DNA from: an uncultured Thermodesulfobacteriota bacterium
GTDB taxonomy: Bacteria > Desulfobacterota > Desulfomonilia > UBA1062
NCBI GenBank assembly: GCA_942491525.1
Contig: CALOBW010000055.1
Coordinates: 328,106 to 392,105, forward strand
Direction of reading: 5' to 3'
DNA length: 64,000 bases
Shown here: piece after piece, positions 18,001 through 27,000 of the stretch
How the letters are laid out: each line of letters starts with the position of its first letter
Position numbering within the stretch: the stretch's first letter is position 1
Program-made: the position numbers

Positions 18001-21000
18001 TTTCGGTGTGGGGCTTGACGCCTCCAATGGCGGAGATGACGAAGATGGCGTTTTCGGCGGATTTGAGTCCCAAAATGGACTCTGATGAAAAGTTTGTATC
18101 ACCCGGCGTGTCGACCATGTTGATGCCGCAGGTCTGCCACTTGTAGCTGAAGATGGCGCTGAAGATGGATGATTGTCTCTTCTGCTCCTCCGGTTCAAAA
18201 TCAAGAACCGAGTTGCCCTCAAGTACTTTGCCCAGTCTGGTGGTGGCTTTGGCGTTGAACAGCATGGCTTCGCCCAGTGTTGTTTTTCCGGAGCGTGACT
18301 GAGAGACAAGAACTATATCCCGTATGTTTTCGGTAGCATAACTTCTCATTGAACCTCCCTTGTGAATTCCAGAATATCATCTCCAGCCTACTGAAAACAC
18401 ACAGTTAAGTCAAGCTGCACTCAATTTAAGCTTGCCTCGTAAAAGCGGCCTGTGTTATGCAATCCGGTTTTGCTCCGCGTGCAGTCAGGGAGCCGTTCTT
18501 GGCGGTTGTGGCCATGCAGCTGTTGGTATATCATGTGTCCATGGATATTGTTGGACATCAGGATCAGTTAAAACTTCTTAAGGGTTATATCGAGGCCGAG
18601 CGCGTGCCGCATGCCTTCCTGTTTGCCGGCATAGCCGGTCTCGGCAAGAGCAAGGTTGCACGGGAGTTTTTCCGTTCATTGAACTGCCGGCGTACTCCGG
18701 GCGATCCCTGCGGCAGCTGCAGCAGCTGCGTTAAGGCTGAAGCTGGCAACCATCCTGACTACATCCACTTTGAGCCGCCATCCAGCGGCAAGCAGATTGA
18801 CGTGCTGCGTGGCGTGCTGGCTGATATCCGGCTTAAGCCTTTTGAGGCGGCCCGGCGGGTGGTTGTGATTGAGCCGACTGAGGGGTTGAATAAGTCCAGT
18901 GCCAATGCGCTGCTTAAAGCGCTGGAAGAGCCGCCCGAGGCGACCATCTTTATCCTGGTGTCGCATAAGCCGAATCTGCTGCTGCCGACCATCATCTCGC
19001 GTTGTCAGCAGGTGCGCTTTGCTCCGCTGGAGGCTGGCGGTTATCACTCCGCCTCGGTGGATCCGCAGCTGCTGCGTTTGACCTCGGGGACGATTGGCGA
19101 GCTTGCGGCAGGTGATCAGGCTGAGATCTTGCGTTTCCGTCAGGGGGTGCTTGATATTCTGCGCGGCGGAGATCCGGTTGCTCTGGCCGCGTCAATCACG
19201 TCCAATGACAAGGAGAGTGTGCCGCTCTGGATTTCGGTTGTGGAATCGGTGCTGCGGGATGTCCTGCTCTACTTTGCCGGTGGTGATAAGCTGGTAAATG
19301 TTGAGATCGCCGATATTGAATTGCGGCACCTGCCCTCAAGTGAGCTTGATGAGATGGCGGATGCCATTCGTCGGCTGCGTCGGGGGGTGCAGGAGAATCT
19401 CAATCTGAAGGTGGCTTTCAGCGAGATATTCATGCTCATGGGTCGTCTGGCGGCCTGATTGTGTAGGCTTGCTCGCTTTTTAATTGTAATTTTGTTTTAG
19501 AATTGGATTTGGAATCCGGCTCAGTCAGTCTGGGGCATGCTTTGTGGTGAAGTATGTGTGTCTTTTGAGGTCGGCGCTGGTAAAAATAATCGTAAATTTT
19601 GGTAAAATAGTTCCTTTCTCTCTTTCCTGATGATCGTCTGCTAATATCTAACTGACTGAATTCATGGGTAAGGCTGTTTTGGCACGTAGATTGCTCATCT
19701 CTGCTGTAATTAGTTTGATGGCGTGGGCCTGTTTTTGGTTCTTGGACGCCGTATGAGAGGGTGGTTTGTTTGTAAATGAATTTATAATTTATTTACAAAT
19801 ATTTACAAATGTCTTGACAATGAAATAAAATTTCATAAATATGTAAAGATATAAATGAACCCTGTCGATAATTTGAATGTCGATCAGTAATTGATTGATA
19901 GTCAAGCATTGAACTTGATTTGGCAGTAAGCATCTTCACTGGGGTTTGTCCCGAAATGGGTAGTGAAGATGATGGTTTTATAAAAATTATTTGGAGGAAT
20001 TATAATTATGAATTTTTCAAAGGTGGAGATTTTTAAGAAAGTATTAGTTTTAATGGTTATGTCTGTATTGGCTCTTGGTTTGGGTGGTTGTCCTAATGGT
20101 TCTGATTCAGGCGATGTTCCCTATGTTCCTGGTCAGACTGAACAGAAGTCCTATGAGCCCAATCAGATTGGTGGTGCTGCTGCTGTTGCCGGTCTAATGG
20201 AATCTGCTGCTCCTGCTCCGGCGACCAAGAATATTAGTGCTGAAGTTGATGCGTTGACTGCTGCTATTAACACTCTTGTGGATGTTGTTCTGCCGACTAT
20301 TGGTGCTTCAGATATCCCCTCAATTCAGGATATTCTTGATGCCATTTATTTTGATGGTGTTACTGAATCAGCGTTTGAACTGTATGTAGCCATCATGGCT
20401 GAAATTAGTGATTTTGTAAGTGGTACTTATGAGGGTGGTGAGCCTGCTCTTAAAATGAACCTTGAGGCAATGGCAGCAGATCCTACCATTGATTGGCAGG
20501 GATTCCCTTATGTGAGTGATGGACTTGAGCTGTCCAAGATGATTTTGGAAATTGACAAGGATATTGATCCCGAAGCTTCTACTATTGATAATGTAAATGT
20601 TGTTCTTGGAAGAGCAGAGCTGGTAAGGCAGTTTGCATCAAATATTCAGGCTGATCAGGTAAAGTGGGCTAGAGATTTCTTGATTGACGGTGATAATCCT
20701 ATTCTCAATAAGCAGGATAATCCGGTGGCATACAACATTGCCTTGAATGTACTGAATGCTACAGGAGCAGGTCTTGAGCTTTCGCATGAGCAGGCACAGC
20801 TGTTCTCTGAGAATCTGGCAGACTGTGTAGATGCTTTGACTGATCCTGCTGGTCCGAGATATGGTGATTTTGCCAGGTCTTTCAAGAAGCTGGTGAAGGA
20901 TATTGTGGTTGGTGGCCAGCTTGAGATGGTTAAGATTGTTCTGTATGCTTTGACTGGCAATGCAGAGGTTTTGGAAATTGCATTTACGCGAGCATAATTT

Positions 21001-24000: not shown

Positions 24001-27000
24001 CGGATGTTTCTGTGCAGGTTGAAGCGCTGGTTGTTCTGACCAACGAGTATGCCCGCACAGTCAGTGACCGCAATATGGCTCTGGCCAGAATCATCATGGT
24101 AGGCACTATTCGTGCTTTTACGAATAACCAGGAGCTGATCACTGCTACCGAGGAGTTTATGGAGTTTGTTGATCTGCATCGTCAGATCCCGCATGACGTT
24201 GCCAGCCGTATCATTAATGAGATGGTCGGTAAGAAATAGATGACCTCAGGGGGCGCTTCAGCGCCCCTAGTTTAAAGATTTGTTAAAGTTTAAATTTTTG
24301 TAATGAATTTTAGTTCATTTTCTGGCATCTGCATTGCAAATATGCTAGTGTAGTTTATATTGAGTCATTGTTGTTGTGGCGCTCAGTCATCGCGCTGCAT
24401 GTTGTAAAGTAGGAGGCATCAGAGATAACAGCTTGTTTTTGCAGCTCTATGTGATTGTTATTTATTGTGGGTGGTCTAGTCGCTGTCAATTTAAGTCAAG
24501 CCTGTCTCAGGATAGCTCTCTGTTGGCTAAAGTGTAAAATAGTGTAAAAATGCCACTGATCTGTGTCATGGGCGCACGGCGGGAGGCAGGATGTTTAATT
24601 CATTTATGGAGGAAAATTATGTCTAAGAGGAACCTGGGGATTAAGGTGATTATGGTGGCCCTGCTGGGCTTGATGGTGGGCTGTTCGGGCAGCGAGAGTT
24701 CAGATGATTGGGCTACTACGGCTGCGTTGCTGGCGGCGCAGGAATCCAAGTCCAATATTCCGGCCAGTGTTGAGGATATGGAGTTGGGTGATGCCGCCCT
24801 GGATAGTGCCCAGAGCGGTGATGGTGCGATTTTGTTGGGTTTCCTGGCTTCGCGCGAAATCAACTCAGCCAATGTTGAAATGGCCCGCCAGATTCTGGAA
24901 GGTCTCATTCCGGATGGATTGGCTCAGGAGAAGGCCCTCGAGCTTTTGGCATTCGTGGATGAGTGCATCGAGAAGGAGACCGATCTGGTTGAGGGGATCT
25001 TTGATAGTATTCTCGGTGGAGTAGCGCTTGGTGGTGATACAAAGTCTCTTGATGCCGCAATCTTGGTCCGCAAGCTTGGCGAAGGCAGTGGTATCGACAG
25101 TGAGTTTGAGTTGCCGGAAAGACTGAGTGGGCTGAGTGAGGCCGTTAATGATTTTATCGATAAAGTTGAGGGTTTCAAGCTTTCGGGAGACGGATCTCTC
25201 GATGATGATGCCGTCGACAGCGTAATTGATCTGGCCTATGTTTTGGGACTGGTCTCCCAGATAGAGAAGGGTCAGCGGGATTTGGCCTGGGATATTCTTG
25301 ACGGCGTTCTGCCTGAAGGCCCGGTGCGCGATTTTGCCAAGGCGACGCTGGATGTTGCTGAATATGGTCTGGAGAGTGTTGATATTCCTCTCGCATGGGA
25401 ATTGGCTGCGCATATTGAGAATTGTTTCAAATATGCGCAGGAGGGTGACGCAGCGAAGCTGGCCGGTGAGATGAATATGATGGCCGACAAGATTATGGGC
25501 CGCAATGCCGAGTTGGCGCGGGTTATTTTGCTGCTGCTGGCTCCTGATGAGATAGATCCCGTGATTGTCGAGTTCATGAAGTTTGTTGACGGCAGTATTG
25601 ATGCGTCGACCGGTTTTGCGCAGCAGATAATTGATAAGTTGGCTGAGGCCAATGCACCTAAATAAGAAGAAGTAAAATCATAAGCAAAAGGCGCCCAACC
25701 GGGCGCCTTTTCTTTTTCAGTCCGCATCCCTACATTTAACTCATGAACGATATGCTGGACCGCGATGAGGTCATGTCTCACAGGCTGCACAATCTGTTGC
25801 ACACCCTGCTGCTGCTGGGCGGCATGCTCGGCCTGTTGGGCTTGCTGGGTTATCTCTTCGCCGGTCCTGCGGGTTTTGGCTGGGCTCTGCTGTTGAGCTT
25901 CGGCATCATGCTCTTCACGCCGCGCATCTCGCCTGCGCTGATGCAGCGCATCTATCGCGGGCAGGAGCTCGATCTGCGCAGTGCGCCGGGGCTCTACCGG
26001 ATGGTGCATGAGCTGGCCGGCCGGGCAAATTTAAGCGCTATGCCGGGCCTCTTCTATATTCCGAGCCGCAGCATGAACGCCTTTGCCCTTGGACGGAATG
26101 GCGCATCCGCCATCGGCGTGACCGACGGTCTGCTGCGTGGCCTCAACTCGCGCGAGCTGGCCGCCACCCTGGCCCATGAGATCTCGCACATCCGCTACGG
26201 CGATACCCGGGTCATGGCGCTGGCCGATATTCTGAGCCGCGTCACCAATGCCCTCTCCCTGCTCGGCCAGCTGCTGCTCTTGATCAATCTGCCGTTGCTC
26301 CTGACCGGTCATGTGGTTGTGCCCTGGTCGGTGGTTCTGCTGCTGCTTGGGGCCCCCTATCTGAGCTCCATGATGCAGCTGGCCCTGTCGCGTACCCGTG
26401 AGTTCAACGCCGACCTGGGCGCTGCCGGTCTGACCGGCGATCCCAAGGCTCTGGTCAGCGCTCTGCATAAGCTGGACAGCCCGCCCGGTTCTGTGCTGAT
26501 GCGTATCTTCAGGCCGCAACGCAGTCAGCTCTCCATCCTGCGCACGCACCCGGCAATTGAGGAGCGCATACGCCGCCTTGAAGCCCTGAGTGTCAAGGCG
26601 CAGCCCGCCCTTGCGCCCGGGGTTCTGTTGCAGGCCCTGCCGCAGGTCGTTCAGCGTCGCCGCCCGTGGTGGCACTGATTTGTTTCCTCCCGTAAAGAGT
26701 TTCTGCTATAGTCGCGCCAGCAAGATTTAGGAGACAAAAGTGAAAGACTATCTGGTACGGGTAATGAGTAAGGATGGCGGCGTGCGCGCGCTGGCCTGTT
26801 TGACGACCAATCTGGTGGGTGATGCCTGCGGCCTGCACGGCACCTGTCCGACCGTTTCGGCGGCCCTGGGGCGCGCCCTGAGCGGCGGAGTCCTGATGGG
26901 CGGCATGCTTGATGATGATCAGCGCGTGGCCCTGAAGTTTGAAGGTAACGGTCCCATGCAGAAGATTCTTATCGAGGCCGACAGCTACGGCAATGTGCGC

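Follow-up and report, generated by a model that had tools for sequence, protein, structure and literature searches.

We analysed a 64-kb stretch of DNA (64,000 nucleotides of contig CALOBW010000055.1, assembly GCA_942491525.1; hereafter the window) from an uncultured Thermodesulfobacteriota bacterium, and within it a low-GC island of lipoprotein genes. The interval 19460-25742 contains four plus-strand open reading frames (ORFs), here called g1 to g4, with holB on the left and the gene of an HtpX-type M48 protease on the right (Table 1). Reading of the sequence placed the start codon of each gene 6-9 nt 3' of a GGAGG-type ribosome-binding site; a ribosome-binding site for each gene had been claimed in the initial annotation. 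That annotation, which described four tandem acidic lipoprotein paralogs and suggested a lateral origin, was partly confirmed by the present analysis.

Table 1. Features of the lipoprotein gene array and its flanks (positions in the window).
Feature	Position	Strand	Description
holB (DNA polymerase III delta')	18457-19458	+	TIGR00678, 9.9e-53; PF13177, 3.5e-48
Predicted sigma-54 -24/-12 box before g1	19680-19695	+	TGGCACGTAGATTGCT; exact match; leader ~310 nt
Near-perfect 31-nt AT-rich palindrome in g1 leader	19769-19799		TTTGTAAATGAATT-TAT-AATTTATTTACAAA; inverted repeat I7
g1	20008-20997	+	329-aa acidic lipoprotein; lipobox LGGC, Cys28
Predicted intrinsic terminator after g1	21016-21042	+	GGGGCGTCC-ATT-GGGCGCCC and T-run; terminator scan, 12 pairs
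Predicted sigma-54-like box before g2	21153-21168	+	AGGCATGTATATTGCT; one mismatch; leader ~110 nt
g2	21278-23026	+	582-aa acidic lipoprotein; lipobox LSGC, Cys23; mature N-terminus CSKDDDD
Predicted composite terminator after g2	23035-23085	+	GGGCGCCC-AAC-GGGCGCCC, then GCCCTC...GAGGGC hairpin and T9; kept in L016
Conserved 50-nt block	23066-23115	+	GGGGAGAGGGC-T9-ATTTTATTCCGGAATCATATTCATTTTT with TTCCGGAA palindrome; alignment A5; palindrome I9
g3	23163-24239	+	358-aa acidic lipoprotein; lipobox LAGC, Cys20; CSGSESSDD; three helical modules
Hairpin after g3	24249-24268	+	GGGGCGC-TTCA-GCGCCCC; no T-run; not called by terminator scan
Predicted sigma-54 -24/-12 box before g4	24323-24338	+	TGGCATCTGCATTGCA; exact match; leader ~280 nt
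g4	24619-25665	+	348-aa acidic lipoprotein; lipobox MVGC, Cys22; CSGSESSDD; three helical modules
Predicted terminator after g4	25686-25711	both strands	AAAAGGCGCCC-AACC-GGGCGCCTTTT; terminator scan; 31 nt before htpX start
htpX-type M48 zinc metalloprotease (right flank)	25743-26678	+	NF002826, 3.5e-49; PF01435, 2.3e-27

All four deduced proteins begin with a basic n-region (K or R within the first 11 residues), a hydrophobic core and a lipobox of the form [LVIM][ASTVIG][GAS]C, which reads ...LALGLGGC in g1, ...VGMLSGC in g2, ...LGLLAGC in g3 and ...LGLMVGC in g4. Gly-Cys is invariant across the family alignment. The mature proteins are acidic, with a pI of 4.05-4.19 and an Asp plus Glu content of 15-20%. 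The signal peptides, lipoboxes and acidity attributed to the proteins at the outset were thus found again in all four, and the near-identical start reported for g3 and g4 corresponds to GCSGSESSDD in both. The residue at position +2 after the lipobox Cys is Ser or Pro, and Asp does not occur there. Export would be via Sec, followed by lipidation of the lipobox Cys; given Ser or Pro at +2 and the acidic tether, the products would probably be sorted to the outer membrane and might reach the cell surface.

The residues that follow the Cys were compared with a known surface-export signal. The lipoprotein export signal (LES) of Bacteroidetes consists of C-X-K-(D/E)2-X or SDDDD directly after the +1 Cys (PMC5080379). 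The sequence CSKDDDD of g2 fits C-X-K-(D/E)2-X; in g3 and g4 (CSGSESSDD) and in g1 (CPNGSDSGD) the acidic residues are displaced. Since the LES pathway is known only within Bacteroidota, the fit of g2 is regarded as a lead only and not as evidence. As for the host, it encodes FliF, and its nearest holB relatives are found in metagenome-assembled genomes labelled Deltaproteobacteria (35-38% identity), which weakly supports its assignment outside Bacteroidota.

The four genes had been annotated as paralogs, and this view stood for three of them. Aligned from end to end, the g3 and g4 proteins show 26% identity (E 1e-13 to 1e-16), and the first ~225 residues of g2 match the profile of the g3/g4 family with an hhalign probability of 97.7% (E 2e-12). 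A motif of the form I-x3-Q/N-phi-x-phi-A-x2-I-L-x2-phi-phi-P-D/E-G recurs within the proteins and was also seen as a DNA repeat family, D1. The profiles of three segments centred on this motif match each other with probabilities of 93-96% (E 3e-7 to 4e-9). A family hidden Markov model (HMM) was built on g3, g4 and four relatives from other contigs, P0002, P0006, P0007 and P0008. An HMM of the single module found three copies each in g2 and in a further relative, P0004, both of which were outside the training set, and all of these copies scored above 100 shuffles. In g2 the modules occupy mature residues 66-107, 165-204 and 412-441; a variable insert of ~200 aa lies between modules 2 and 3, and a C-terminal extension follows. 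The family HMM gave 44 bits for g2 and 57 bits for P0004 (three modules each), and 36 bits for the position-1 gene of the related contig L015 (two modules in a partial ORF), which was likewise outside the training set and whose module matches also scored above all shuffles. On these profile comparisons, g2, g3 and g4 are paralogs that carry a triplicated module of ~50-60 aa, predicted to be all-alpha. In the common plan of the family, a signal peptide would be followed by an acidic Ser/Asp-rich tether and then by three helical modules with variable helical linkers between them.

The g1 protein behaved differently. It scored 12.8 bits against the family HMM with its signal peptide included, but the mature protein alone scored only 5.5 bits, which is within the range of the shuffled sequences (maximum 6.3, n=477), and its hhalign probability was 10%. 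A single weak module match scored 5.8 against a shuffle maximum of 3.2. The block ILDAIYFDGV, which had been described as shared between g1 and g2, was not reported by BLAST at E<10 and is at most a degenerate form of the family core motif. By sequence, g1 appears to be a singleton, either unrelated or diverged past recognition, and its kinship with the family is unproven.

No credible match was found for the island proteins in the reference collections, consistent with the initial observation that no enzymatic motif could be recognised and no function assigned. Pfam-A gave no match at E<=1, the best NCBIfam matches (E 0.028-0.1) were far below the cut-offs, and PHROGs and PADLOC gave none. 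Profile matches in the PDB were limited to de novo designed helical proteins (E 3e-4) and were read as compositional. No relatives were present in plasmid, phage and IMG/VR collections. With self-matches excluded, a word-indexed search of 5.8e9 proteins returned one homolog of g4 and one of g2 (P0004, 46% identity); for g1 it returned only the self-match. A HMMER profile search of 1.84e9 representatives found five proteins in all, which trace to three NCBI assemblies and to a single contig of a JGI metagenome. The g4 protein had no match among the GTDB species representatives, and the family profile had none in the metagenomes. Taken together, the family was found in ~4 genomes among ~15 billion proteins, and as judged from these searches the g2/g3/g4 family is previously undescribed and extremely lineage-restricted. 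AlphaFold2 models calculated from 3- and 6-sequence alignments (pLDDT 43 and 46) were both all-alpha, so that the architecture is all-alpha as modelled. A Foldseek search of the PDB with the better model returned nothing at E<0.4.

A variant of the array is known from Logan contigs L015 and L016 and from the proteins P0002, P0004 and P0006, which share an 8,187-bp contig; P0008 lies on a 560,221-bp contig and P0007 on JGI contig L018. Both haplotypes occur in one metagenome run, ERR9670067, in which the window haplotype is represented by a contig (L017) of 100% identity. A literature search for the sample accessions returned no papers. At position 1 the variant carries a family-type gene (36 bits, E 2e-10) and not a homolog of g1. 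The g2 protein and its counterpart P0004 are 46% identical, with values of 10-77% along the protein; the synonymous divergence (dS) of these alleles is near-saturated at 1.2-2.0, and the ratio of nonsynonymous to synonymous divergence (dN/dS) is ~0.2. Positive selection on g2 was considered and rejected, as with this ratio and near-saturated dS diversifying selection is not demonstrated. The g3 protein and P0006 are 97% identical, with full identity (100%) in residues 61-210. The g4 protein and P0002 are 100% identical in residues 1-30 and 17-47% identical in the remainder. The overall identity of g4 to its positional allele P0002 is 36%, versus 34% to P0007 from a different organism of ~43% GC.

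The two haplotypes therefore share a near-identical tract of ~1.5 kb, which extends from inside the signal-peptide region of g3 to codon 30 of g4 and is embedded in anciently diverged DNA. Such a tract requires homologous recombination, and the breakpoints are located in or beside the conserved 5' heads of the genes. On the evidence of these alignments, three processes shape the array: genes are duplicated, genes are replaced, and homologous recombination takes place at the conserved 5' ends, which comprise promoter, leader, signal peptide and tether. As a result, co-occurring strains carry mosaic arrays with old, strongly divergent alleles. The expansion and diversification of paralogs proposed initially agree with the relatedness of g2, g3 and g4 and with the allelic differences between the locus variants.

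A conserved start followed by a divergent body recalls polymorphic lipoprotein toxins of the SitA type, which act in kin recognition and combine a conserved N-terminal delivery region with a recombining C-terminal payload. In the island family the signal peptide, tether and N-terminal helix are conserved and the body is divergent, as is most evident from g4 and P0002, and the lipoproteins lack Asp at +2. No toxin domain was found, however, and no immunity ORF lies between any stop codon and the next promoter. Moreover, the variable bodies are not unrelated domains but remain homologous with the same three-module plan, and their acidic helical repeat composition is not toxin-like. We consider this explanation highly improbable. 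The tandem arrangement of divergent, secreted lipoprotein paralogs, which differ in content between strains and have old alleles, could also mean an orphan array of immunity lipoproteins, gathered and diversified, much like acquired clusters for interbacterial defence, against interbacterial toxins that act in the periplasm, such as lipase or amidase effectors of type VI secretion systems (T6SS). Immunity proteins of the Tli type are periplasmic lipoproteins, often encoded in tandem, and T6SS loci are often controlled by sigma-54. Nevertheless, no effector, T6SS, Rhs or contact-dependent inhibition (CDI) gene is present in or beside the island, and the proteins match no immunity family in Pfam or NCBIfam. 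They are also large (330-580 aa) and built of repeats, and a long regulated leader in front of each gene is unusual among immunity genes. An immunity function is thus very unlikely.

The base composition of the island was compared with that of the 39 other ORFs in the window. The GC content is 0.432 in g1, 0.480 in g2, 0.509 in g3 and 0.521 in g4, against 0.583 ± 0.038 in the other ORFs. At third codon positions the GC content (GC3) ranges from 0.339 (g1, the lowest) to 0.564 against 0.753 ± 0.093 (z -4.4 to -2.0), and the T content is 0.34-0.51 against 0.16; GC at first and second positions (GC1 and GC2) is normal. The z-scores of a measure resembling the codon adaptation index are -1.7 to -3.1, and the spacers between the island genes have a GC content of 0.36-0.46. 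The compositional deviation is genuine and is restricted to synonymous and non-coding positions. The per-gene values thus bear out the low-GC island with T-ending codons and with g1 and g2 as its most AT-rich members, and the codon usage of the island is distinguishable from that of the window ORFs. A second low-GC patch lies at 37696-39981, where a beta-lactamase-fold gene (38695-39981, minus strand; GC 0.408, GC3 0.385), the sole other strong codon-usage outlier in the window, adjoins a LysR regulator gene (37696-38592).

The composition could mean that the array is a recent island from a low-GC donor, that is, plain foreign cargo without special local dynamics. The foreign third positions, the normal GC1 and GC2 and the low GC of intergenic DNA (0.36-0.41) speak in favour of this explanation. 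P0007, moreover, has the native composition of its ~43% GC genome, where its gene is convergent with a PSP1-metG-phosphoesterase cluster (L018). Distant relatives have the order tmk-holB-PSP1-metG and not holB-htpX, which indicates that the neighbourhood has been rearranged here. However, no integrase, transposase, tRNA or flanking direct repeats were found at the island; with no mobility genes, att repeats, or plasmid, phage or viral relatives, it does not qualify as a mobile-element genomic island. The GC gradient from g1 through g2 and g3 to g4 argues against a single recent block. In addition, the low GC is shared by the variant locus (0.47-0.49) while the dS of g2 exceeds 1, which indicates that the locus is older than the split of the haplotypes and has not been ameliorated. 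Any acquisition would therefore be old, and the low GC has been maintained. A recent insertion is not supported, and the foreign-cargo explanation as a whole is unlikely; a plausible history is an old transfer from a lineage of lower GC, after which genes were duplicated locally. Of the lateral acquisition suggested in the initial annotation, the part that stands is the foreign third-position composition together with the native state of P0007, whereas the lack of mobility genes and the long-standing low GC do not agree with it.

The gene of P0007 thus lies by the kind of cluster that follows holB in a distant relative, which hints weakly at a long-standing link between the family and the surroundings of holB. 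In the window the 5' neighbour of holB is a divergent EF-G paralog (16271-18349, minus strand) instead of tmk, and holB is not followed by PSP1-metG, unlike in the distant relative L001; by gene order, the holB neighbourhood of the present lineage appears rearranged. The true start of holB is likely nearer 18538 than 18457. In the searched collections and JGI metagenomes, the closest relatives of holB reach <=38% identity and those of htpX <=37%. In L018, P0007 is bracketed by a palindrome, GCGACACGTCGACGTGTCGC, at 3325-3345 and 4478-4500; these copies may be terminators shared in both directions or may belong to a repeat element.

Putative sigma-54 promoters were searched for on both strands of the window with the pattern TGGCAY-N5-TTGCW. 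Two exact matches were found against 0.28 expected, both on the plus strand in spacers of the island, before g1 and g4. The leaders of ~310 and ~280 nt agree with the earlier statement that at least two genes have sigma-54 promoters and leaders of about 300 nt. The box before g2 is located inside a 22-nt block that is invariant in the intergenic alignment with the variant loci L015 and L016; around it the mean column identity is 85%, and pairwise blastn gave ~72%. No sigma-54 box was found upstream of g3, nor upstream of P0007 in L018. Promoters of this class require an enhancer-binding activator. Three genes for such activators are present in the window (3391-4680 and 7383-8789 on the minus strand, 47797-49209 on the plus strand), and the use of sigma-54 is plausible since they are encoded there, although none of them adjoins the island. 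Two of the activator genes are near fliF (497-2131) and the gene of a TPR/AMIN protein, and the third is paired with a PAS histidine kinase gene (45921-47753). A repeat search found no upstream repeat shared among the intergenic regions of the island. Sigma-32-like CCCCAT motifs in the g1-g2 and g2-g3 spacers were dropped, because their distance from any -35 element does not fit and just one of the motifs is conserved.

Other candidate control elements were found in the same spacers. The palindrome in the g1 leader is followed by TTGACA at 19814, with a sigma-70-like site at 19802-19831. The g1 leader RNA (304 nt) has a folding z-score of -4.1, and that of the g4 leader, +1.5, indicates no unusual structure. 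The palindrome may be an operator or an RNA hairpin, and g1 may have a second promoter besides the sigma-54 box. Rfam contained no known RNA family matching the window. The 50-nt block at 23066-23115 is nearly invariant between the locus variants although the adjoining sequence has diverged; this candidate control element is presumably the promoter or an operator of g3.

A terminator of its own had been assigned to each gene. Hairpins are indeed present 3' of all four, and the hairpin of the g1 terminator is kept in the variant locus. The g3 hairpin lacks a T-run, and its role as a terminator is uncertain. The terminator core described as shared within the island is not peculiar to it: a similar hairpin, GGGCACCC-AACC-GGGTGCCC, ends unrelated genes at 13809-13832, and the core was rejected as an island repeat element. 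The ORF adjoining that hairpin (13838-15286, minus strand, 482 aa) encodes a protein unrelated to the island family; it has no Pfam match at E<=1e-5 and from its sequence looks cytoplasmic and regulatory or methyltransferase-like. Transcription of the array would thus proceed gene by gene, from predicted sigma-54 promoters before g1, g2 and g4 and from the conserved element before g3, and the hairpin 3' of each gene would close each predicted transcription unit. The gene-by-gene promoters and terminators first annotated are in this sense borne out as predictions.

From these observations we propose, with a probability of roughly 0.55, that the island is a chromosomal array of individually regulated envelope lipoproteins diversified by recombination, probably located in the outer membrane or at the surface. 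Rather than act as enzymes, the products would form a coat of the envelope or surface, or a binding scaffold, that is variable and expressed conditionally. Phages, predators or neighbouring cells would exert the selection that keeps the alleles diverse. A variable envelope or surface scaffold is favoured over enzymes, stress factors, immunity proteins and SitA toxins because it better fits the behaviour of the array, namely the predicted regulation of individual genes, the old alleles in co-occurring strains, the replacement of one gene and the recombination at the 5' heads. A more specific version is tentative and rather doubtful. The array might work as a cassette-style system of variable surface lipoproteins of a free-living anaerobe, in which conserved expression heads, each composed of a sigma-54 promoter, leader, signal peptide and acidic tether, serve as recombination anchors, and old, strongly divergent helical-repeat bodies are swapped under balancing selection. 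Phages, predators or kin recognition would be the source of such selection, which would maintain the diversity of the bodies between co-occurring strains.

Several points weigh against the proposed surface array. The alignable part of g2 is under purifying selection (dN/dS ~0.2). The promoters, the terminators and the localisation are in silico predictions. An acidic tether has been demonstrated as an export signal only in Bacteroidota, and the organism has flagellar and Deltaproteobacteria-like genes. With a pLDDT of only 43-46 for the models, comparison of folds is meaningless. The tract of 97-100% identity may be a recent import, or the divergent parts may be the imports, and both histories are compatible with the alignments. 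Finally, the adjacency of htpX and hslO could point instead to an envelope-stress role.

This last point deserves closer consideration. The 31 nt between the g4 terminator and the htpX start (25686-25742) are too short for a conventional htpX promoter, and transcription of htpX may therefore rely on read-through or start from a promoter within g4. The gene 3' of htpX is hslO (Hsp33; 26740-27511, plus strand), which is broken over two reading frames: the piece at 26740-27270 covers positions 1-169 of the HSP33 profile and that at 27227-27511 covers positions 239-273. The gene may carry a frameshift or be a pseudogene, or the assembly may be wrong here. In an envelope-stress role, the island proteins would be chaperone-like periplasmic lipoproteins that act together with htpX and hslO and are induced through sigma-54 in the manner of Psp and ZraP; their acidic helical surfaces would buffer cations or bind unfolded envelope proteins. 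The position of the array directly 5' of htpX, with hslO next, fits such a role, and partial read-through from g4 could occur across the short gap. The sigma-54 boxes and the acidic all-alpha composition fit as well, since stress proteins of the ZraP/Spy/PspA type resemble the island proteins in these respects. On the other hand, stress factors are normally conserved, whereas this family is confined to a few genomes and its alleles are replaced between co-occurring strains. The gene of P0007 in L018 is not beside htpX or hslO, and no sequence match to the Psp, Spy, CpxP or ZraP families was obtained. We therefore regard a stress function as quite unlikely.

Host-associated pathogens such as Borrelia and Mycoplasma are well known for variable lipoproteins encoded in tandem arrays that recombine, and there immune pressure explains the arrays. 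Similar behaviour in an uncultured environmental anaerobe, with paralogs set head to tail, 5' ends that are conserved, old alleles and mosaic exchange among strains of one sample, would suggest that pressure from phages, predators or neighbours yields a like architecture outside hosts. The cassette-style version, if true, would be an environmental counterpart of the antigen arrays of pathogens, built on a new protein fold. The locus would also define a new all-alpha repeat module that has no sequence or structural relatives, and its predicted sigma-54 promoters, a small and closely spaced group, offer a way to identify the activator that controls them. As long as neither the organism nor the proteins are accessible to study, the locus has limited practical value.

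Four known systems were compared with the island. The PspA and ZraP stress proteins share with it the predicted sigma-54 promoters, the alpha-helical character and the vicinity of the stress genes htpX and hslO; they differ in that there is no homology and in that they are conserved, single-copy non-lipoproteins without allele replacement at the strain level. With the LES lipoproteins of Bacteroidota there is likeness in the acidic run after the +1 Cys of g2 (PMC5080379), and the starts of g3 and g4, of P0008 (CAGGESSDD) and of P0007 (CYEADNNDE) are polar and then acidic like SDDDD. In g3 and g4, however, the acidic residues are at +5 and +8/+9, outside the range of positions found to be critical (PMC5080379); LES has been shown in Bacteroidota only, and no partner of the SusC/SusD type is present here. 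The SitA toxins of myxobacteria, also lipoproteins, are homologous to one another at the N-terminus but unrelated at the C-terminus (PMC5562445), and they resemble the island proteins in the conserved N-terminal region, the polymorphic remainder, the recombination and the differences between coexisting strains (PMC5562445). SitA requires a C-terminal toxin domain and an adjacent sitI, neither of which is found in the island, and the variable parts of the island proteins stay mutually homologous.

The best analogue in kind is the PFam54 array of Borrelia (lp54; CspA and its paralogs), in which paralogous lipoprotein genes are likewise arranged head to tail. The PFam54 proteins are also all-alpha. 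The PFam54 locus shows lineage-specific duplications and losses, divergent variants at one locus and exchange between strains at the level of the array (PMC11389397). There is no sequence similarity between the two sets of proteins, and the settings differ: PFam54 is carried by a linear plasmid in a spirochete that lives with hosts, and it functions in complement evasion, whereas the island is chromosomal in an environmental anaerobe. PFam54 comprises 6-11 genes against four here, and the island differs further in its triplicated module of ~50-60 aa and its predicted sigma-54 promoters.

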